Shown here: positions 6,327 through 50,482 of the stretch, one piece after another
How the letters are laid out: each line of letters opens with the position of its first letter
Numbering within the stretch: the stretch's first letter is position 1
IMG/VR virus record: IMGVR_UViG_3300033153_009397
Location: 1 to 64,000 of that record
Reading direction: 5' to 3' (one strand)
Length of the DNA stretch: 64,000 bases
From: a virus
Position numbers and translations under genes: made by a program
Notes under the pieces: generated by a model
What the model was told of the DNA's origin: nothing
Seen by the model: only the letters and a program-made list of their open reading frames with translations
Databases searched by the model: none

Positions 6327-6662
6327 TTACTCCTTCCGAGATTTATCTTTTAGACTTTGATATTTTTTATGTTCCCATTTCTCACTAGGATTAGTAATCT
6401 TAGATATTAATCTATTAACTCTATCAATATTTTCTTCTGTTTCTACTGTGGTCTTTCTAATAATTTTGTCTGAGCTGATTTTATATTGTCTCTGTATTAT
6501 ATCTCTACATATTTCCCACGTTGCAATACTACATCTACTAAGTAACTCTTTAACAAAACTCTCTTCATCTGGTATTTTTACACCATTCTGTTTAAAGTAA
6601 GTTATAAAGTAGTTAGGGCAAAGATGAATAATAGGATTATCCCACTTCTCATTGTGTTTCAT
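6327..6662 (-). CDS. Hypothetical protein
   Basis: ORF coupled to the upstream ORF by an ATGA overlap. Confidence 0.55.
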   Translation of the reverse strand: MKHNEKWDNPIIHLCPNYFITYFKQNGVKIPDEESFVKELLSRCSIATWEICRDIIQRQYKISSDKIIRKTTVETEENIDRVNRLISKITNPSEKWEHKKYQSLKDKSRKE

Positions 6663-6874
6663 TTCTTAAACACTTCCTTACAAGTTACATTTCCTTTTTT
6701 AACTTCAAGTTCAATTTCAAGATTATCTACAATAGCCGTAACTATCATTCTAATATACCCATCAGAATCAGTCTTAAAATTCAAATCTCTTACCCAACCA
6801 ATTAATTGGTCGTCAAAAAAGACTTTTGTAAAATGTTTATGACCGTTATCTGACACAATTTTTAACTTCACCAT
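6659..6874 (-). CDS. Hypothetical protein
   Basis: GGAGGTGA RBS; coupled to the glycosyltransferase stop. Confidence 0.6.
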   Translation of the reverse strand: MVKLKIVSDNGHKHFTKVFFDDQLIGWVRDLNFKTDSDGYIRMIVTAIVDNLEIELEVKKGNVTCKEVFKK

Positions 6875-8886
6875 TATATATCACCTCCTACAAGAACTTC
6901 GTAAAGCTTCTTAGCAGACCTTTTCCAAGTAAACCGTTTAACATCTTTCCTAGCTTGTGTTCCTAATCTGGAACATTCAGATGGATGTTCATAAGCATAC
7001 CTCATTGTTTTACGAAGATTATCTATAGAAGGAACTGCCCATTTCAAAGCATTAGTTGGAGCATACCATCCAGCTCCATTGCTAATTTCCATAGTTTCTG
7101 GTTTAACCAAGAACGAGTTTTTCTTGTTCATATAAGTCAAATGACCTCCATATTCTTGTGCAATACAAGGAATCCCACAATTATGAACTAAAATACCATT
7201 GGCAAAATATATTCCACTACTAGTGGCTATGTTATATACTTTTCCGCTAAAGTTGTATATTGACTTTGAGAGAATTTTACTCTTTGATTTAATTTTCTCA
7301 TCTCTATGAAGGCTTTCCAGTCTTCTTTTGTGTATTTGTTCATAAATGTTTCTTGTCTTTTTATTCGTCTGTTTATAAACGAAATCAATATTCCACATTG
7401 TTTCTTCTTCAAGATAAGATAAGGGTGCAATTTTTCTAGCAAAGGTAATATTTTCATTCCTTGCAAAATTGTTGTATAAAATTCCGATTTTTGTTGTCTC
7501 CTTTTTATATCCAAGTAACTTTCTGGAAAATTCTGTTTCAACCAATTGTGTATTTCTATACACTTGTTGCATATGCGTATTTGAGGAATTAAAGTGCCTA
7601 TCAATCTCTCTTCTGCTCGACCCTTTCGATGAAGTCGAAATGTTATTGTTCCATCTGCGTCTATAAACCCAGCCAGATATGAAATCATCTCCTCTGGAAT
7701 GTTTATATTCATCATCTTCATTCTTCCAATTTTTGTTTTCTTTAATTTCATTTCTCTTACTTTCATTCTTATTGAAGCTTCTGAACGTCTCTTTAACATC
7801 TTTGAAATTTGATAAGCTGTATGGGTCTCCCAATTTTCTTTCAAAACTTCCAATTCTTCTTTTGTCCATCTCATATAATTCATATAACTCATCACCTATT
7901 AATATGTCTTTTGCCATCTTCCATCCATTAACTGTGAAAATGGGGTGTTCTGGAGTACATTCAAGTATTGAACTCTCTGTTTCAATCCTAATCATTTTAC
8001 CATCATAATGTCTTACATGTACATCTTCTATGCCACTTGGTATATCAACCAAAGTATTATATGGAAAACATGCCATACTTTGCATATATGGGAGACACCA
8101 ACTTTCCCCTTTACTTGGTAAAATGAAACAGTCTGCACTGTTGTAAAGCTTTCTTAATCCTTCTTCATTGAACATTTGTCCAATAACTAAAATATGAGGA
8201 GGATTTTTTAATCCCATGTCATAACTTAGTCTTTTAACGCTGTTTTGAATATTAACCATAGTAGCAAAAGTATTATCTTTTCCATAGGTTTTAATGATTA
8301 AGTTTACTTTGTCATCACCAGTAAATTCACTAAGATAAGATTTCAACAGTTCATGAAATCCTTTCCGCATTATCCATTGACCTAAAGAAAGAAAGACAAA
8401 TCTATTTTGGTCATCCTTTTTAATCATAGGTTCATCTGGATAAAACGTCTTGGTATCTACTCCGTGATTAACTATGTGAATTGGTTTAGGAACATTCCCT
8501 ATAGAATCTTTAATCATATTTTTCACAAATTTATTAACAGTTACATATTCATCATAAACGCTTATTAACTCTCTCCATAGAGGCGGAAGCCTATCATTTT
8601 CCCACACAAACTTTATCAAGTTCCTTGTATGGTCTGGTGGTGTATTCCAAATTACTGGAGTACCGTATCTTAGAAGCGGAACTTGAAGAGTAGAAGTATT
8701 CTTCATCATTGAAGTAAAAATTTCTGCTTCTTTTTCTGGTAAATTTAAACGCATTTTATCTACGTGATTATCTACCAAATGAATGTCCAATCCAAGTTCA
8801 TTCATTCCTAATAGTAGTTTTCTAGCTACAAAAGAATATCCACTTGGAGCAAATACTGTCGTTTCTATTTTAACGTCTGCTGTCAT
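6874..8886 (-). CDS. GT-B (GT4-family) glycosyltransferase containing an intein
   Basis: SGYS, NHGVD, RKG and LYNSADCFILPSKGESWCLP..SMA|CGIPCIA motifs; the EAMACG-like motif is split by a 297 aa insert. Confidence 0.9.
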   Translation of the reverse strand: MTADVKIETTVFAPSGYSFVARKLLLGMNELGLDIHLVDNHVDKMRLNLPEKEAEIFTSMMKNTSTLQVPLLRYGTPVIWNTPPDHTRNLIKFVWENDRLPPLWRELISVYDEYVTVNKFVKNMIKDSIGNVPKPIHIVNHGVDTKTFYPDEPMIKKDDQNRFVFLSLGQWIMRKGFHELLKSYLSEFTGDDKVNLIIKTYGKDNTFATMVNIQNSVKRLSYDMGLKNPPHILVIGQMFNEEGLRKLYNSADCFILPSKGESWCLPYMQSMACFPYNTLVDIPSGIEDVHVRHYDGKMIRIETESSILECTPEHPIFTVNGWKMAKDILIGDELYELYEMDKRRIGSFERKLGDPYSLSNFKDVKETFRSFNKNESKRNEIKENKNWKNEDDEYKHSRGDDFISGWVYRRRWNNNISTSSKGSSRREIDRHFNSSNTHMQQVYRNTQLVETEFSRKLLGYKKETTKIGILYNNFARNENITFARKIAPLSYLEEETMWNIDFVYKQTNKKTRNIYEQIHKRRLESLHRDEKIKSKSKILSKSIYNFSGKVYNIATSSGIYFANGILVHNCGIPCIAQEYGGHLTYMNKKNSFLVKPETMEISNGAGWYAPTNALKWAVPSIDNLRKTMRYAYEHPSECSRLGTQARKDVKRFTWKRSAKKLYEVLVGGDI
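7180..8070 (-). mobile_element. Intein (297 aa) inserted before the Cys of the GT4 SMA-CG motif
   Basis: N-terminal CFPYNT, block B CTPEHPI, GW..A.D...GD, block F KVYNIAT, terminal HN followed by a +1 Cys. Confidence 0.93.
7227..7883 (-). CDS. Single-motif LAGLIDADG homing endonuclease with an N-terminal Myb/HTH-like domain, nested out of frame inside the intein
   Basis: YLAGFIDADGTI motif; LLEKLHPYLILKKKQ; N-terminal RWTKEELEVLK...ISKML.RSEASIR; AGGTGAT RBS 7 nt before ATG 7883. Confidence 0.88.
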   Translation of the reverse strand: MNYMRWTKEELEVLKENWETHTAYQISKMLKRRSEASIRMKVREMKLKKTKIGRMKMMNINIPEEMISYLAGFIDADGTITFRLHRKGRAEERLIGTLIPQIRICNKCIEIHNWLKQNFPESYLDIKRRQQKSEFYTTILQGMKILPLLEKLHPYLILKKKQCGILISFINRRIKRQETFMNKYTKEDWKAFIEMRKLNQRVKFSQSQYTTLAEKYIT

Positions 8887-10214
8887 TATATTAACCCCAC
8901 TCTGTTATTTACTTTTTCAAGTACTTCTATCCACATTTTATCTACCACTTTCCAGTCAAAGTTTTTGACTGCCCATTCTCTACAAGATTTACTTTGTTTA
9001 TCTATCAGCTCTTGATTTTTGTAATAAGCTTCCATACCCAAAGCAAAAGCGTCAACATCAACCCATGCCTTGTGTACTCCAGAATGTTCCAGATATAACC
9101 TTGATGGAAGAATTGGCATACCTCTCATCTGGTCGATTTCTAACATCTTCCCATCATTATCAGTAGCTATTAACTCTCTTGTTGTAGTATAATCTGTAAT
9201 AAGATTAGGTTTACCACAACTCATAGCCTCAATAATGGGTATTCCAAAACCTTCTCCTCCAGTACTCAAAACATGAACATTGAAAGAATTATACAAAAGA
9301 ACAAGGTCATGAGATGGAATACCTTCAATGAAATCATAAGCAGTACCTTCAATCTTCCTCGGAGGAGTAATTATAACATTGTCATTTAATTTTAATGCAT
9401 CAATCCATTCAAGAAATAGATAGTCATGATTATGGTCTGGCATAAACAAAGGGTCTTTAGGGTCAAGATGAAGATAAAGATAACAACGTTTTCTTTTTTC
9501 ATCAATCTCTTGCTGAGTTGGCCCAGTATCAAGAAATTTTCTAAATGCTGTTAACAACCTAATATGATGTTTTCTTAGATTTAATCTAGCCACTGAACCA
9601 AAAATGAATGCGTCTTCCAAATCGCACTGACGAGTTCTTAATCCGTACATTTCAAAGAACGCCTTTCTGCATTCTATCATGTTAGCGGGACTGAACTTTT
9701 TAGTATCTAAACCATGAGGAATATATTCAGAATGAAGCTTTAACTGTAACTGGACTAATTCTCTGCCATACTTAGACATGCATACTCTTACATCTGCTTT
9801 CGGTAATGTTCCCCCAATTATCTGATTGATTGGATGCCCATCAATCGGCAAATACCATATCCAAAATGGTCTTGGCATACTACCTAACTGGTCTACCATA
9901 TGGGCATCTCCTTGAGTAAAAACCACGTCTGGATTAGTCATCTGAAATAATGGGTCATAGCTGTCCTTTCCAAAAGGAGCTCTTCCCTTAATTCCGTGTA
10001 TCTTAAAAGGGAACCCTTTGATATCTGGATTTCCTCTGGTTTGCCAACCTAGATAATGTACATCCCACTTCATTTTTTCAGCTGCTAAAGCAGCAATGTG
10101 TCCACACTGGTTCGCAAAACCCGTAGGATAATAGGGACTATCAGAACCAAAAATAGCTACTGGTGTTTTGTCCCCTATTTGTATGTTAGTTTGAACATCG
10201 ACATTATTTGTCAT
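8886..10214 (-). CDS. GT-B (GT4-family) glycosyltransferase
   Basis: DSP..PTGF, IPHGLD, ARLNLRK, GEGFGIPIIEAMSCGKP; start moved to the leaderless ATG 10214, 30 nt from a TATA box. Confidence 0.9.
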   Translation of the reverse strand: MTNNVDVQTNIQIGDKTPVAIFGSDSPYYPTGFANQCGHIAALAAEKMKWDVHYLGWQTRGNPDIKGFPFKIHGIKGRAPFGKDSYDPLFQMTNPDVVFTQGDAHMVDQLGSMPRPFWIWYLPIDGHPINQIIGGTLPKADVRVCMSKYGRELVQLQLKLHSEYIPHGLDTKKFSPANMIECRKAFFEMYGLRTRQCDLEDAFIFGSVARLNLRKHHIRLLTAFRKFLDTGPTQQEIDEKRKRCYLYLHLDPKDPLFMPDHNHDYLFLEWIDALKLNDNVIITPPRKIEGTAYDFIEGIPSHDLVLLYNSFNVHVLSTGGEGFGIPIIEAMSCGKPNLITDYTTTRELIATDNDGKMLEIDQMRGMPILPSRLYLEHSGVHKAWVDVDAFALGMEAYYKNQELIDKQSKSCREWAVKNFDWKVVDKMWIEVLEKVNNRVGLI

Positions 10215-10258
10215 GTATAGACTATTATTCTTACAACATTTAAATGTTTCTAATAATT

Positions 10259-10786
10259 TTATAATTGCGGTGTCGACGGGTACGTTATGTTTTGAGAAAT
10301 ATCTTTCTTCCACAACATACAAGCAATATAAATAACTCTATTACTAGTACCAAAATAAGGTACAACATTTGCCACATCAAATTCTATTTGTTGTTGAGGA
10401 GCGTCAATAGGCCAGATAATAGTATCTCCTACAACTATCTTTCCCCACTCATAACCATAAGTGTACATAAGATAATCATACCTCTGAAGCCTACCAGCCT
10501 CAGAAACAAAATCTGCGTTACCACTTCTACCGTGAGGAGGAAAAGCCTCCATAATGCATTGAATAGGACGGTCATCGGCATTACCATAAATCCACCCATC
10601 ATTACAAATACTACAATAAGGGTCTCTATTCTCTGTAATTGCATCCCAACAAGAACAACGAACAGAATCCTTCTTAGCTAACAATCTAGCCCAAGAAGGG
10701 AATTGCGATAAAATAATAGTAAATTCTCTTTCATCTATTATAGGAGTATGTGGACTTCCTATTTTCAATTGTCTATGTTGAGACAT
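10259..10786 (-). CDS. Head closure (stopper) protein
   Basis: CSCWD..DPYCSICNDGW zinc motif and a GDTI motif; follows the adaptor. Confidence 0.6.
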   Translation of the reverse strand: MSQHRQLKIGSPHTPIIDEREFTIILSQFPSWARLLAKKDSVRCSCWDAITENRDPYCSICNDGWIYGNADDRPIQCIMEAFPPHGRSGNADFVSEAGRLQRYDYLMYTYGYEWGKIVVGDTIIWPIDAPQQQIEFDVANVVPYFGTSNRVIYIACMLWKKDISQNITYPSTPQL

Positions 10787-46602: not shown

Positions 46603-46881
46603 TCATTTTTCAATGATTTTGTTGAACCTTAGTTTATTGTCGAAGGTACGTAGAATAATTGTGTCTTGAAGAAGTTCAAAAATAAGGGAAGAGTATCGTT
46701 TACCTCTGAAATAAGTATGAGGGTTCATAGTGAGAAATGCTTTTTTCAATTCTTCATGAGTTAGAGAACCCTCTCTTCGAAGAATAAAAATAATACTATT
46801 AATAGCAGCACGTTTATGGATAAACTCCATATTTCTACTAATATAAACTTCATTATTTTTGTATGGCAAAAAAATCATCAA
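46603..46881 (-). CDS. Small wH-like protein downstream of PolB
   Basis: ILRREGSLTHEEL pattern; overlaps the PolB stop. Confidence 0.45.
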   Translation of the reverse strand: MMIFLPYKNNEVYISRNMEFIHKRAAINSIIFILRREGSLTHEELKKAFLTMNPHTYFRGKRYSSLIFELLQDTIILRTFDNKLRFNKIIEK

Positions 46882-49800
46882 CTTGTGTATTAATTATTTT
46901 CTTTTTAGGCATTGTATCTTTTACTGGTTGTATTAATTGTTTAAAAACATTATTGAGTCTTTTGATATATTCTTGGTAGTCTAAATCCCTTTTTTTGGCT
47001 ATTTCTATGGGTTCCACGCCTAGTATTTTATTATCCATGGACGGTTTATCAATGACGTAAACAAAGTCGATAAATGAGCCTTTTCTCATGATGATATTTT
47101 CATCAATAGGATGTTTACTGGATGATTGAATAGCTTCAACTAATTTTTTGGCAGCACGAACATGAGGAGCTCTTTGTTGAGTATATTTAGAAAGAGGACG
47201 AGAAAGCTGTTTAGTAATCTTATAATCTTCAATACTGCCATGTTTTAATCGTATACCTCTAACAAATTTATCTCTAATGGCAATAAGATTGAAGTAAAGT
47301 TCTTTAATTTGCTCGGGACGGTTAAATTTTTCAATGGCTGCTATCCACTCATTGAAAGCTTGCTGTATGATGAGAGGGGTATCTCTCTTCTTGCCAACTA
47401 ATCCTTTAATTGTTTTATGAAGCTTACCGTCTTTTTGTTCAATAACTACATAGTTTTTCTTTTTATGCAGTACAAGTATTAAGCCCGTTTCTTCTATATC
47501 TATGTCTACATCATATTTTTCACTAATTTTTGGCTGCATTGTTTCTTTAAAGTGATTTACATCTAAACCTTTAATGAAAACACTGTCGGTATTATGTACA
47601 ATTAGTTCTCCCACCCCAGCATGAAAATGATGGTTGTAAGTTGTAAGGTCGTATACATTTTCTTCTTCTTCTCTTAATAGTTCTATTTTTTTTATTTTTG
47701 TTGAGGAGTATCTTTGGTTGTTATTTGATATATTAAGACGAAATATATCTAATTTATCTCTTCTGGTATTAATAGAAACTTTATATCCTATTGACTTGGC
47801 GAGAAAATAGAGTCCTTGAGCTCCTATTTTACCTTTAATATCACATCTTAAGGAACCACTTTTTTTATCTCCATCCCCTCGATAATATCCTTCAAAGAAG
47901 GCTTTTTTTATCTCCTTTTTGCTATTAAGTATAATTGAAGGTATTTTCTTGTAACCATCTTCTGTGTATAAACTTAGATAGATTTTTACCATATCTTTTA
48001 TGTTGCCTTTTGGTATAACTCTATATATTTTCGTACTCTTTCTGATATCTATGATTTTGAAGTCAGTAAAATGTCCGTAGACTTTGAGTAATTTCTTTTT
48101 TAATTCCTTCATTAGTGGTAAATTATTTTTTCCTATATACCAAGAGTATTTTGTTCCCCATTTGGTATTATAAATACCACAACTACCATCGGCAAGAAAT
48201 AAACCCATTATCCAAGCTTCGTCTTTGGAAATATAATTCATGTTACTTTTTATTTCTGGAAAAGAGTGTAAAAGTTTATCACCAATTAGTATCTCAGAAG
48301 GTCTAACTATATTATTATTGGGTTTTAATAATGAATGGTCTTCTGTAACATCTACACAACCAGTATGAGTTAGTATTCTATAAATTTTCTTTTTGGTTTT
48401 GTGTTTATGTATTTTTAGAATTCTTGTCCAACCTTTTTCTGTCCACACTCTTAGATTTTCTCTAAATTCATGGTTTTCTAATTCTTTTATTGGCATGATT
48501 TCTATGTAACCATCTAAGTTGGTTATTATTGGTGTATCTGCTGTTACACTATCTCCATAGAATACGGTTAAACCTTCTGCTTCAAATGTTTCTTTGATGC
48601 CAATAAGGGTATCTCGTCCAGTGGCTGTTACACACTCTGCAACTGGACCGCAGAAAAAGGGGAAAGATTCAAAACCAGCAACTCCATAACTGGCATTGAT
48701 GATTACTTTTAGCCATTGTTCAATAACTTTGGCTATAGCATTAGTATTTTTCATGGGCTTATAATAGTAAACTCTTGCATCCTTGATGAAACCAACAACT
48801 GAAGGAAAGAGACCAATGTATTTGGTACAAACTTGATGATAAGCACCTTCAGAAACTTTTATTTTATTATCTTTACATTCTTCATGACCACAATTCATTG
48901 TAGTATAACATAAGTTATGGTTTACAATCATGGTGGGATAAAGAGAGGCTACATCAGCAACAATAATATCGTAGTGTACTCCTTTTTCCGGCTCAATGAC
49001 TATTGCTCCTCCATATCTCTTACCAGTGGTTGAAGCGGAAAGTATTTTTCCTATTGCACTTAATTCAATACGAGAAATGGCTAACATGTTGTAGAAATGA
49101 AGGGCACGATAGAATATATTTGATATAATAGCCGAAACTTGTCGTCTAACAGCACTTTCTACTGTTAAATGACCCATCCTCATTGCCATACAAATAAGTT
49201 TCATTACTACTTCATTGTCAAAAGTAGCCAGTTTTAAGCAAAGAGATGTATCTTGAGCATTGTAATATAGTAATTCTTGCATACAGAGGTCTGTTACTCT
49301 TCCTTCATAGTCATATTTTGTCTCTCCTATGAGTTCTTTTGATACATCATCAAGAGAGTTTTGTTTGTATTTGTTTTTAAAAGCGTAATTTTTAATGCTT
49401 GGATTAGAAAAGAATGGATAAAGGTCAATGAGGAACTTGTCTTTCAATCCTTTTACTATGCGGTCTTTTTTCTTATATGTTCTATCTTCATCTTCTGGTC
49501 GCATAAATCCCCATATTCTACTATCATAAATTCCCAGATATTTCATTCTGGTGACAATATAGGGAATATCAAACATATCAAGGTTATATCCTACCACGAA
49601 TTTTTGTTTCATAGCAAATAAGAATATCATAAATTTCTTTAGGAGTTCCACTTCATTATCACATATTCTAATAAGATGATTAGGATGTTTGAGGTTAAAT
49701 TTTTTGACTTTTATTTTTCTGACCTCATCTGATATAACGAATGATAGGTGATGAATATCATCTCCTTTGTACCAACTCAAGGTAATGGAAGAAATAGGTG

Positions 49801-50482
49801 AAACCGCCTCAAACGAATTTAAGGCATCTCTAAAGTTAAAATCTATTTCGATATCTAACGCTACCAGATGCTCCTTAAATTGTGGGAACGGAGTAGTGAA
49901 GATACTCATCATCCAATCATACATTTTTTTTGGTAGTTCTTTTTTGTATCTTTCTATTTGTTTTAGATTATAAATAGGGTGATGTTTTACATGGTACCAA
50001 TCAATCTCTGGAGATATAGTTGATATATTATAAGGCATACCAATTGTAATATTATGTTCTATGTTAAAGAGGTCGGCATATTTTATATGGTTGTTATATA
50101 CGAAAGTAGGAAGCAAAAGTTGACTTAGTCCAGTTCCAGTATCTCTATCTGTAACATATCTAGGTTGAGTAACTATAACTTTGGTTACCTTCATTTTTTT
50201 TCGTGTTCTGGGATGAATTTTATCTACTTCTTCACATCCTATAACTTTTTTATTGTTCCAATATGGTTCTCCCCGTTCATTTAGTTTAACATATCCACAT
50301 TCTCTTACTTTTTCGATGTTTAAGAGCTGTGATTCTTTTAATCTGGTATAAAAATAGGGTCGGTGAGATTTTCCATGCGGTATCTCGGTTAATTTTCCAG
50401 TTTCATCATTCCAGAAGATTAATACTTGTCCCGTTCTGCTTCCTTCTTTATTATATTTAGTGCTTATCAGCCATTCGGTCAT
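46853..50482 (-). CDS. polB: Family B DNA polymerase (PolB1-like) with an intein
   Basis: Exo motifs DIE, YNLDMFD, YNAQD; polymerase motifs DVASLYPT, KVIINASYG, YGD|TDS, KKNY. Confidence 0.96.
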   Translation of the reverse strand: MTEWLISTKYNKEGSRTGQVLIFWNDETGKLTEIPHGKSHRPYFYTRLKESQLLNIEKVRECGYVKLNERGEPYWNNKKVIGCEEVDKIHPRTRKKMKVTKVIVTQPRYVTDRDTGTGLSQLLLPTFVYNNHIKYADLFNIEHNITIGMPYNISTISPEIDWYHVKHHPIYNLKQIERYKKELPKKMYDWMMSIFTTPFPQFKEHLVALDIEIDFNFRDALNSFEAVSPISSITLSWYKGDDIHHLSFVISDEVRKIKVKKFNLKHPNHLIRICDNEVELLKKFMIFLFAMKQKFVVGYNLDMFDIPYIVTRMKYLGIYDSRIWGFMRPEDEDRTYKKKDRIVKGLKDKFLIDLYPFFSNPSIKNYAFKNKYKQNSLDDVSKELIGETKYDYEGRVTDLCMQELLYYNAQDTSLCLKLATFDNEVVMKLICMAMRMGHLTVESAVRRQVSAIISNIFYRALHFYNMLAISRIELSAIGKILSASTTGKRYGGAIVIEPEKGVHYDIIVADVASLYPTMIVNHNLCYTTMNCGHEECKDNKIKVSEGAYHQVCTKYIGLFPSVVGFIKDARVYYYKPMKNTNAIAKVIEQWLKVIINASYGVAGFESFPFFCGPVAECVTATGRDTLIGIKETFEAEGLTVFYGDSVTADTPIITNLDGYIEIMPIKELENHEFRENLRVWTEKGWTRILKIHKHKTKKKIYRILTHTGCVDVTEDHSLLKPNNNIVRPSEILIGDKLLHSFPEIKSNMNYISKDEAWIMGLFLADGSCGIYNTKWGTKYSWYIGKNNLPLMKELKKKLLKVYGHFTDFKIIDIRKSTKIYRVIPKGNIKDMVKIYLSLYTEDGYKKIPSIILNSKKEIKKAFFEGYYRGDGDKKSGSLRCDIKGKIGAQGLYFLAKSIGYKVSINTRRDKLDIFRLNISNNNQRYSSTKIKKIELLREEEENVYDLTTYNHHFHAGVGELIVHNTDSVFIKGLDVNHFKETMQPKISEKYDVDIDIEETGLILVLHKKKNYVVIEQKDGKLHKTIKGLVGKKRDTPLIIQQAFNEWIAAIEKFNRPEQIKELYFNLIAIRDKFVRGIRLKHGSIEDYKITKQLSRPLSKYTQQRAPHVRAAKKLVEAIQSSSKHPIDENIIMRKGSFIDFVYVIDKPSMDNKILGVEPIEIAKKRDLDYQEYIKRLNNVFKQLIQPVKDTMPKKKIINTQVDDFFAIQK
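47591..48550 (-). mobile_element. Intein (320 aa) with an in-frame LAGLIDADG domain at the YGD/TDS site
   Basis: Starts SVTADTP; VTEDHS; GLFLADG and EGYYRGDG; VYDLT; ends HN followed by Thr. Confidence 0.95.

Follow-up and report, generated by a model that had tools for sequence, protein, structure and literature searches.

The idea that an endonuclease gene may lie out of frame inside an intein is reportedly old; others attribute it to a 1998 paper by Gorbalenya in Nucleic Acids Research (26:1741). In the window, as we call the whole stretch of 64,000 nucleotides (nt) analyzed here (positions 1 to 64,000 of the IMG/VR virus record IMGVR_UViG_3300033153_009397), a gene for a GT4 glycosyltransferase carries an intein, and inside this intein lies a homing endonuclease gene (HEG) of the LAGLIDADG kind, on the same strand and in the +1 frame. 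We read the two as a composite selfish element, in which a mini-intein in a phage GT4 gene would hold a complete, formerly free-standing HEG, and we give this reading a probability of roughly 0.8. The closest described system is a cyanobacterial dnaX intein with an out-of-frame LAGLIDADG gene that has its own Shine-Dalgarno (SD) sequence and is under frame-dependent selection, a case its authors read as the secondary invasion of a mini-intein (Phillips, DeSimone and Gogarten, bioRxiv 10.64898/2026.09.14.751524); that preprint credits Gorbalenya 1998 with the first proposal. Common to the dnaX intein and to the family described below are splicing halves that flank a disordered in-frame linker, a LAGLIDADG protein encoded in another frame with an SD upstream, and purifying selection in the nuclease frame with relaxation in the host frame. 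The dnaX host gene is bacterial and its inner gene is labeled "+2ORF", whereas here the host is a phage GT4 gene and the relation is +1. The nuclease described here is a single-motif protein led by a helix-turn-helix (HTH) domain, a predicted I-CreI-like homodimer from a large stand-alone family.

A second preprint reports actinobacteriophage inteins with antisense LAGLIDADG genes, antisense VSR-like genes and frame-3 endonuclease VII-like genes, proposes that free-standing nucleases invade inteins, and gives evidence of continuing transfer (bioRxiv 10.1101/2025.01.02.630785). These inteins share with our locus the phage setting, a separate overlapping endonuclease open reading frame (ORF) and an unstructured in-frame middle; they differ in their hosts (DNA polymerase, minor capsid, terminase and thymidylate synthase) and include no same-strand +1 LAGLIDADG gene in GT4. 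In fractured genes, where split inteins flank a free-standing endonuclease gene, the host exists as two separate genes that depend on trans-splicing (Dassa et al., 2009, PMC2677866), whereas the GT4 host frame stays open through the HEG and splicing would take place in cis. The ShiLan-type HNH insertions of phage methylases also place an out-of-frame endonuclease in an insertion free of host-frame stops, but they have no splicing domains and stay in the host protein (Arsenault et al., 2025, PMC11855218); the GT4 insert is flanked by clear intein blocks. With I-CreI, I-MsoI and I-CvuI our nuclease shares the single LAGLIDADG motif, the core fold and a modeled interface through the motif helix, but these enzymes are intron-encoded, lack an N-terminal HTH and are only about 20% identical to it in sequence. 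Canonical inteins, such as the phage PolB intein and that of the glycosyltransferase-like protein P0031, have the same splicing blocks but carry a double-motif endonuclease in frame. The first-pass annotation, made from the sequence alone, had stated that no example of such an element was described, which did not hold, as the layout occurs in both preprints; a paper on a GT4-site intein with an HTH-LAGLIDADG family was not found, though no search was aimed at it. What is particular here is the GT4 active-site motif as the site, the HTH plus single-motif I-CreI-like nuclease, and the breadth of the family. The layout itself is rare but already published for other inteins, and the gain is one of breadth, not of principle.

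The intein was delimited by comparison with intein-less GT4 homologues, which are 369-389 amino acids (aa) long and 47-76% identical to the window's protein (all coordinates are given in Table 1). Homologues P0003-P0010 are without precursor residues 273-569 and read ...QSMA/CGVP... at this point, with the slash marking the junction and V or I as the third residue after it; the precursor in the window reads GESWCLPYMQSMA/C...HN/CGIP, and the site lies three residues past the second position of the GT4 EX7E-type motif. Pfam models matched in the precursor are Glycos_transf_1 (E 6e-9), Glyco_trans_1_4 and Intein_splicing. The hallmarks of an intein are all present, namely Cys1 (C273), a block B with TPEH, a terminal His-Asn (...LVHN) and a +1 Cys (C570), and C1, T39, H42, H296 and N297 are invariant across six homologous inteins (alignment A3). 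On these residues the element would be a class 1 mini-intein (Cys1 ... His-Asn / Cys+1) that is probably competent to splice. When it was modeled together with five homologous inteins, aa 1-66 formed beta-strands with a predicted local distance difference test score (pLDDT) of 71-89 and aa 262-297 reached 74-83, while residues 67-75 and 77-261 stayed below 50; the top Foldseek matches of the model were all mini-inteins or Hint domains, at weak scores (E 7e-3 or weaker). The host-frame intein sequence matched no endonuclease family in Pfam, and the similarity of its linker among relatives is only the shadow of the LAGLIDADG codons read in the other frame. The intein of P0031 shares the TPEHP...GWKMAKD block with ours (33% identity over 91 aa) and carries an in-frame double-LAGLIDADG domain, and neither the host-frame middle nor the +1 protein of the window has any residual homology to that domain. 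The first-pass annotation had seen at 7180-8070 an intein with intact splicing blocks and a central part of about 200 aa devoid of endonuclease motifs, and both observations stand.

The nested frame is open for 222 codons from a GTG at 7895 to a TAG at 7229-7227, with ATG codons at 7892, 7883 and 7874, and two +1-frame stops (TAA at 7901, TAG at 7898) lie just upstream of this start region. The HEG thus starts 58 codons from the beginning of the intein and its stop lies 15 codons short of the intein's end, so that the first part of the C-terminal splicing region doubles as the 3′ end of the gene. Its SD-like AGGTGAT arises from the host codons GGT GAT in the intein's ...LIGDEL... and is one of five copies in the window, of which four sit 5-7 nt before an ATG-started ORF of at least 60 aa; the gene directly downstream of GT4 is among the ORFs so preceded. 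A sigma-70 promoter scan of 6600-9200 gave 8 sites against 12.1 in shuffled sequence, none of them convincing before the HEG start of the window. Directly after the HEG stop, within the codons of block F, there is a 5-bp hairpin CCACTAGTAGTGG followed by AATATATTTT (7214-7226, minus strand). It comes from a consensus scan that returned 4 terminator-like sites in 2.6 kb where 0.9 are expected, and is possibly a weak terminator or a product of chance.

Both frames are open beyond chance. In the HEG frame, 50 codons end in T and 75 start with AA, AG or GA, and not one junction between them forms a host-frame stop, where 16.9 would be expected naively. When the HEG was shuffled synonymously with its protein kept, host-frame stops averaged 12.6 and none of 200,000 shuffles was stop-free, as the observed sequence is; the third sense frame over the same DNA has 37 stops. 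The claims made at first pass that this double openness is not due to chance, and that the ribosome-binding site is formed by the GGT-GAT codons 7 nt before the ATG, were borne out, and the depletion of stop-forming junctions that it had suggested looking for was found.

The protein encoded in the +1 frame belongs to a large family. A HMMER search against 1.8 billion representative sequences gave 1929 matches, of which 141 have an E below 1e-10; most are stand-alone proteins, about 195-260 aa in length and collinear with it end to end over residues 8-205. A word-index protein search recovered P0001 alone, protein searches of viral and metagenome contigs gave no close relative, and the exact protein is absent from a collection of 15 billion sequences. 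Members of the family have an N-terminal HTH (WTxEE...L..NY), one LAGLIDADG motif and the blocks PYLIxKKxQA and IRxLN. The HTH is supported by PHROG 323, a transcriptional regulator group (E 8e-8, residues 5-60), and family members match Sigma70_r4_2, GcrA and HTH_23. The motif itself, YLAGFIDADG, is encoded at 7679-7650, and the window copy keeps the invariant or near-invariant family residues Y73, A75, G76, D79, G82, P158 and K163. Across the relatives D79 is nearly invariant, and each of them has D or E at position 81. PHROG 5046, a homing-endonuclease group labeled HNH there, matches residues 71-204 (E 4.8e-14), and among 36 aligned relatives PF00961 (LAGLIDADG_1) is matched by 19 and PF14528 by 21. 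An AlphaFold2 model built on the family alignment (pLDDT 88.6, predicted template modeling score 0.82) has the alpha-beta-beta-alpha-beta-beta-alpha order of the core, and its top Foldseek matches are I-CreI, I-MsoI, I-CvuI and I-Vdi141I (E 1.5e-8 to 3e-6); for the first three the best E is 1.5e-8 and the target-normalized template modeling score 0.71-0.74. The first-pass view of the +1 ORF as a LAGLIDADG protein with an HTH-like N-terminus is in this way corroborated by motif, HTH helices and model. Modeled in two copies, it scored 0.70 in ipSAE, an interface score, against 0.01 for the best of three controls, through residues 68-82; the mark used for ipSAE is reached by 20 of 30 solved pairs and by 1 of 23 single chains, and the runs agreed in at least 58% of contacts with pLDDT at least 74. 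The models thus predict an I-CreI-like homodimer joined through the LAGLIDADG helices, a result that may partly reflect likeness to, or memory of, the solved I-CreI dimers.

The same layout recurs in relatives. Among 80 IMG/VR loci encoding relatives of the HEG, 76 have no long overlapping frame, and in three (L003, L031, L055) a long ORF encloses the nuclease entirely, with the nuclease at +1. Of these, L003 is a GT4 gene whose intein occupies the site seen in the window, and the genes of L031 and L055, of the DUF2201 metallopeptidase/VWA type, have an intein with the same kind of +1 nested gene. The overlap at L012 (script value 0.83) was rejected as a chance open frame of a free-standing HEG in a different frame relation. 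Further GT4 inteins were sought through the junction pattern G-x-LVHN/CG-x-P. In viral contigs this gave same-site GT4 inteins with a +1 HTH-LAGLIDADG ORF in L085, L086/L089, L090 and L094, and in metagenomes the same layout in L099, L104, L105, L109, L116, L117, L119, L122, L124, L127, L133 and L140 (some are duplicates), while a scan of genome contigs gave chance matches in unrelated ORFs only. Beyond the window, the site and the nested gene, always at +1, are shared by 15 or more viral or metagenomic GT4 genes with GC contents of 34-65%; a search for homologous inteins with nested off-frame HEGs had been suggested at first pass. An in-frame LAGLIDADG motif was looked for in the members with the GT4 junction and found in none. 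The HEG enters 55-58 codons into the intein in five of six measured GT4 examples and 37 in L090, where the +1 open frame extends further upstream of the ATG, and it ends 15-24 codons before the intein end. Avoidance of host-frame stops is significant in each of the three relatives tested, L003, L031 and L055 (P at most 1.5e-4).

Since the layout is conserved in relatives, a sequencing artefact is excluded. An in-frame endonuclease displaced by two compensating indel errors, a concern raised at first pass and invited by the origin of the window as a metagenome-assembled viral contig, would have to arise at the same position and in the same +1 relation in more than 15 independent contigs of 34-65% GC. 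Nor would indel errors account for the absence of the roughly 12.6 host-frame stops expected, or for an ORF that has an SD and an ATG of its own, an HTH homologous to that of stand-alone proteins, an entry 58 codons in and an exit 15 codons before the end. The identical 670-aa protein is recorded from 6 contigs, and we regard an artefact as having practically no chance of being the right explanation.

Several other relatives vary the theme. L105 and L119 have +1 ORFs of 331 and 330 aa (L119:728-1717:+) in which three HTH repeats in tandem precede the LAGLIDADG core, and their inteins are longer to match. In L095, another GT4-site intein (host ORF L095:10074-11774:+), the +1 ORF (L095:10861-11514:+) keeps the HTH and the C-terminal blocks and has lost the LAGLIDADG region while the host frame remains open; this looks like a decaying nested nuclease, matching the prediction of the homing cycle. 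A different host protein of about 1000 aa in L084 (host ORF L084:1865-4882:+) has an intein ending ...ILVHN/CGVP, and its +1 frame (L084:2730-3608:+, also L130:1250-2128:+) contains an ORF of 293 aa in which zinc-ribbon-like CxxC motifs are repeated and the C-terminal region looks like a Vsr/DUF559-type nuclease; the only matches of the ORF are PHROGs of unknown function (E 2.6e-6). This intein would then have a VSR-like nuclease out of frame on the same strand.

Pairs of relatives show how the overlap evolves. Between L031 and L055 the differences per site over the overlap are 0.37, 0.30 and 0.50 at HEG codon positions 1, 2 and 3, and 0.50, 0.36 and 0.28 when the same DNA is read in the host frame, while the exteins and flanking host sequence have the usual peak at host position 3 (0.58-0.62); amino acid identity over the same DNA is 54.7% in the HEG frame and 35.4% in the host frame. 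L109 and L140, both groundwater metagenome contigs, are a closer pair; of their 68 mismatches within the overlap, 42 are at position 1 of host codons, and the changed codons are 34 synonymous to 25 non-synonymous in the HEG frame against 10 to 48 in the host frame. In these relatives it is the HEG protein that is conserved, and the host frame is merely kept open. The intein of L109 and L140 is 8-10% diverged and the exteins 23-27%, from which we infer that the element moved recently between diverged GT4 alleles.

From this a mechanism can be proposed for the window. The class 1 mini-intein would supply protein splicing, and ribosomes in the GT4 frame would traverse about 195 codons of stop-free, unstructured filler. 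Other ribosomes would start at the internal AGGTGAT and the ATG at 7883 and make the 218-aa endonuclease, which by its model would dimerize through the LAGLIDADG helix like I-CreI. Judging from the family, the target of the dimer would be the conserved active-site motif of GT4 alleles that lack the intein, and repair of the cut allele would copy the intein together with the endonuclease gene into it. Selection would then be dual, keeping the protein sequence of the endonuclease and asking of the host frame only that it has no stops, so that the host-frame linker would be there to hold the +1 gene. What the sequences show directly is the anatomy, the statistics, and how the overlap is conserved and selected in relatives; protein splicing, separate translation of the nuclease, cutting of the empty allele by a dimer, and the internal promoter considered below are inferred.

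The start signals of the family speak to how the nuclease would be made. AT-rich members have an SD 5-8 nt before the HEG ATG: AGGTGAT in the window, TAGGAGGA in L099, GGAGGG in L116, AGGAGG in L124 and AAGAGG in L117. In L085, L086, L090, L117, L133, L003, L109 and L140 a TATAAT, TATACT or TATTCT precedes the ATG by exactly 7 nt. This -10-like hexamer is formed by conserved intein codons for L-Y-N/T/S, whose Tyr codon is TAT in 14 of 15 copies over 14 loci (two of the copies are in the window's LYELYE), and GC-rich hosts prefer TAC elsewhere (in L109, TAT makes up 0 of 15 Tyr codons). The L-Y-N/T codons may thus be kept as (TTG) TAT AAT or TAT ACT against host codon bias, which would be a third layer of information in the same DNA, and hint, as a hypothesis, at a promoter within the intein that would give the nuclease a leaderless mRNA; the 7-nt spacing could also be simply inherited. 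No good -10-like box precedes the HEG in the window, and AT-rich members such as this one may use the SD instead. These signals bear too on a programmed +1 ribosomal frameshift, by which the endonuclease would be made from the GT4 frame as a fusion to the N-extein and the N-terminal part of the intein. Both frames do lie on one mRNA and the overlap begins inside translated sequence, but the two stops at 7901 and 7898 would confine the shift to a few codons, a canonical SD and ATG stand where stand-alone relatives begin, and the relatives have an SD (AT-rich) or the -10-like box 7 nt before the ATG (GC-rich), which makes a frameshift highly improbable.

The origin of the nested genes was addressed with the stand-alone family and a quick maximum-likelihood tree of HEGs. 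The first-pass suggestion that a free-standing HEG invaded a mini-intein out of frame is supported by the collinear stand-alone family and by the lack of similarity to the nuclease of P0031. Alternatively, the intein's own in-frame nuclease domain could later have been shifted out of frame; inteins related to ours, such as that of P0031, carry in-frame LAGLIDADG domains, and the event order cannot be read from present sequences. We consider this very unlikely, as the nested protein is single-motif, HTH-led and collinear with stand-alone genes from the first to the last conserved block, bears no sequence relation to the double-motif domain of P0031, has relatives without a long overlapping frame at 76 of the 80 viral loci, and no member with the GT4 junction has an in-frame LAGLIDADG motif. 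In the tree, 17 GT4-nested nucleases fall in one clade (Shimodaira-Hasegawa-like approximate likelihood ratio test 97) together with three database proteins, and L031 and L055 form their own branch. The shared site, frame and entry point lead us tentatively to favor one origin for the GT4-nested genes. At 53-57% GC the expected number of off-frame stops is about half that in the window, which suggests that the first insertion would have been easier in a GC-rich genome.

Certain observations weigh against reading the window's locus as a composite selfish element. The Intein_splicing match (PF14890: E 6.2e-6, 26.5 bits, split by the insert) is below the curated cut-off of 35.8, and the LAGLIDADG_1 match of the HEG (E 7e-4, 20.9 bits) is below its cut-off of 23.1. 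A pseudo-palindrome search at the reconstructed intein-less junction of 15 loci found no consistent axis. In the tree the window HEG lies outside the 97%-supported clade and groups weakly with P0033 and P0071; a topology uniting all GT4-nested copies is not rejected and has the higher likelihood (approximately unbiased test, P 0.79). The nested HEGs nearest to the window copy are about 25-31% identical and it has no close relative, so that frame-specific selection and recent transfer, which are seen in the family, would extend to this copy by family membership. The same lack of a close relative for a direct selection test leaves room for the window HEG being an inactive relic, with the intein persisting by splicing alone and the +1 frame open for want of time to decay. 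The homing-cycle model predicts such decay after fixation, and L095, with its host frame open and its +1 LAGLIDADG motif lost, is an example of what it would look like. The window copy, however, keeps all seven of the conserved residues named above, its SD and ATG are intact, its fold is modeled at pLDDT 88.6, and a 222-codon open frame at 31% GC is improbable without selection where the third frame has 37 stops; we judge the relic unlikely.

The contig that holds the composite element is an 80-kb linear IMG/VR viral contig of about 49% completeness and 34% GC, of which the window is part. Its genes for tail sheath, portal, family-B DNA polymerase and a TROVE protein indicate that the source is a tailed phage; the TROVE (Ro60-like) domain protein is encoded by the phage at 56466-58079 on the plus strand (Pfam E 5e-33). 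A second GT4-type glycosyltransferase (8886-10322, minus strand, 478 aa, TTG start) lies directly upstream of the intein-bearing one, its stop overlapping the start of the latter, and the pair suggests a glycosylation module beside tail and structural genes. The identical intein-bearing GT4 protein is known from the 6 contigs already mentioned, and a blastn search of its gene against phage records gave no match. The PolB intein of the same genome, whose endonuclease the first-pass annotation had noted as in frame, is canonical, with an in-frame double-LAGLIDADG domain (IMGLFLADGSCG, FFEGYYRGDGDK), and the other frames of its region hold no long ORF.

Table 1. Coordinates of the intein-bearing GT4 gene, its nested HEG and the PolB gene in the window, with the basis of each assignment.
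Feature	Position	Strand	Basis or detail
GT4 glycosyltransferase gene	6874-8886	-	670-aa precursor ORF
GT4 N-extein	8886-8071	-	alignment with intein-less homologues
Intein, 297 aa (precursor aa 273-569)	8070-7180	-	alignment with intein-less alleles
N-terminal splicing region, intein aa 1-66, blocks A and B (CFPYNTLV...TPEHP...WKMAKD...GDEL)	7873-8070	-	kept in alignment A3
Host-frame linker, intein aa 67-261, stop-free, not conserved, predicted disordered	7288-7872	-	pLDDT <50, no Pfam endonuclease
C-terminal splicing region, intein aa 262-297, blocks F and G (VYNIATSSGIYFANGILVHN)	7180-7287	-	kept in alignment A3
GT4 C-extein including stop	7179-6874	-	alignment with intein-less homologues
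SD-like AGGTGAT	7891-7897	-	7 nt upstream of ATG 7883
Nested HEG, +1 frame, 218 aa from ATG 7883	7227-7883	-	ORF, homologues, model
HEG HTH domain, residues 9-60 of 222-codon frame (WTKEELEVLKENW...)	7716-7871	-	three helices, 12-48, pLDDT 93-97
HEG LAGLIDADG core, residues 68-159	7419-7694	-	alignments A2 and A4; model; conserved D79, D81, K163
PolB gene of the same phage	46853-50482	-	intein aa 660-964, about 47591-48505

Taken further, the GT4-site intein and its HTH-LAGLIDADG gene might form a large, old and actively homing family in which the overlap is stable rather than transitional, with the -10 box as a possible additional layer; we offer this as a tentative and rather doubtful generalization. 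For annotation, the finding means that gene callers, which report only the 670-aa GT4 ORF, leave such nested nucleases unannotated, and that inteins of this kind are misread as decaying or as mini-inteins. The overlap is a natural case of about 660 nt of dual coding, in which selection acts on the protein of one frame and only keeps the other free of stops. For practical use, the family is a source of compact nucleases that are I-CreI-like and led by an HTH, and their natural target, the GT4 active-site motif, is defined. In evolutionary terms it shows that a free-standing homing endonuclease and a mini-intein can be lasting partners without in-frame fusion, and this unfused partnership bears on the view of intein origin in which splicing came first and the nuclease later.

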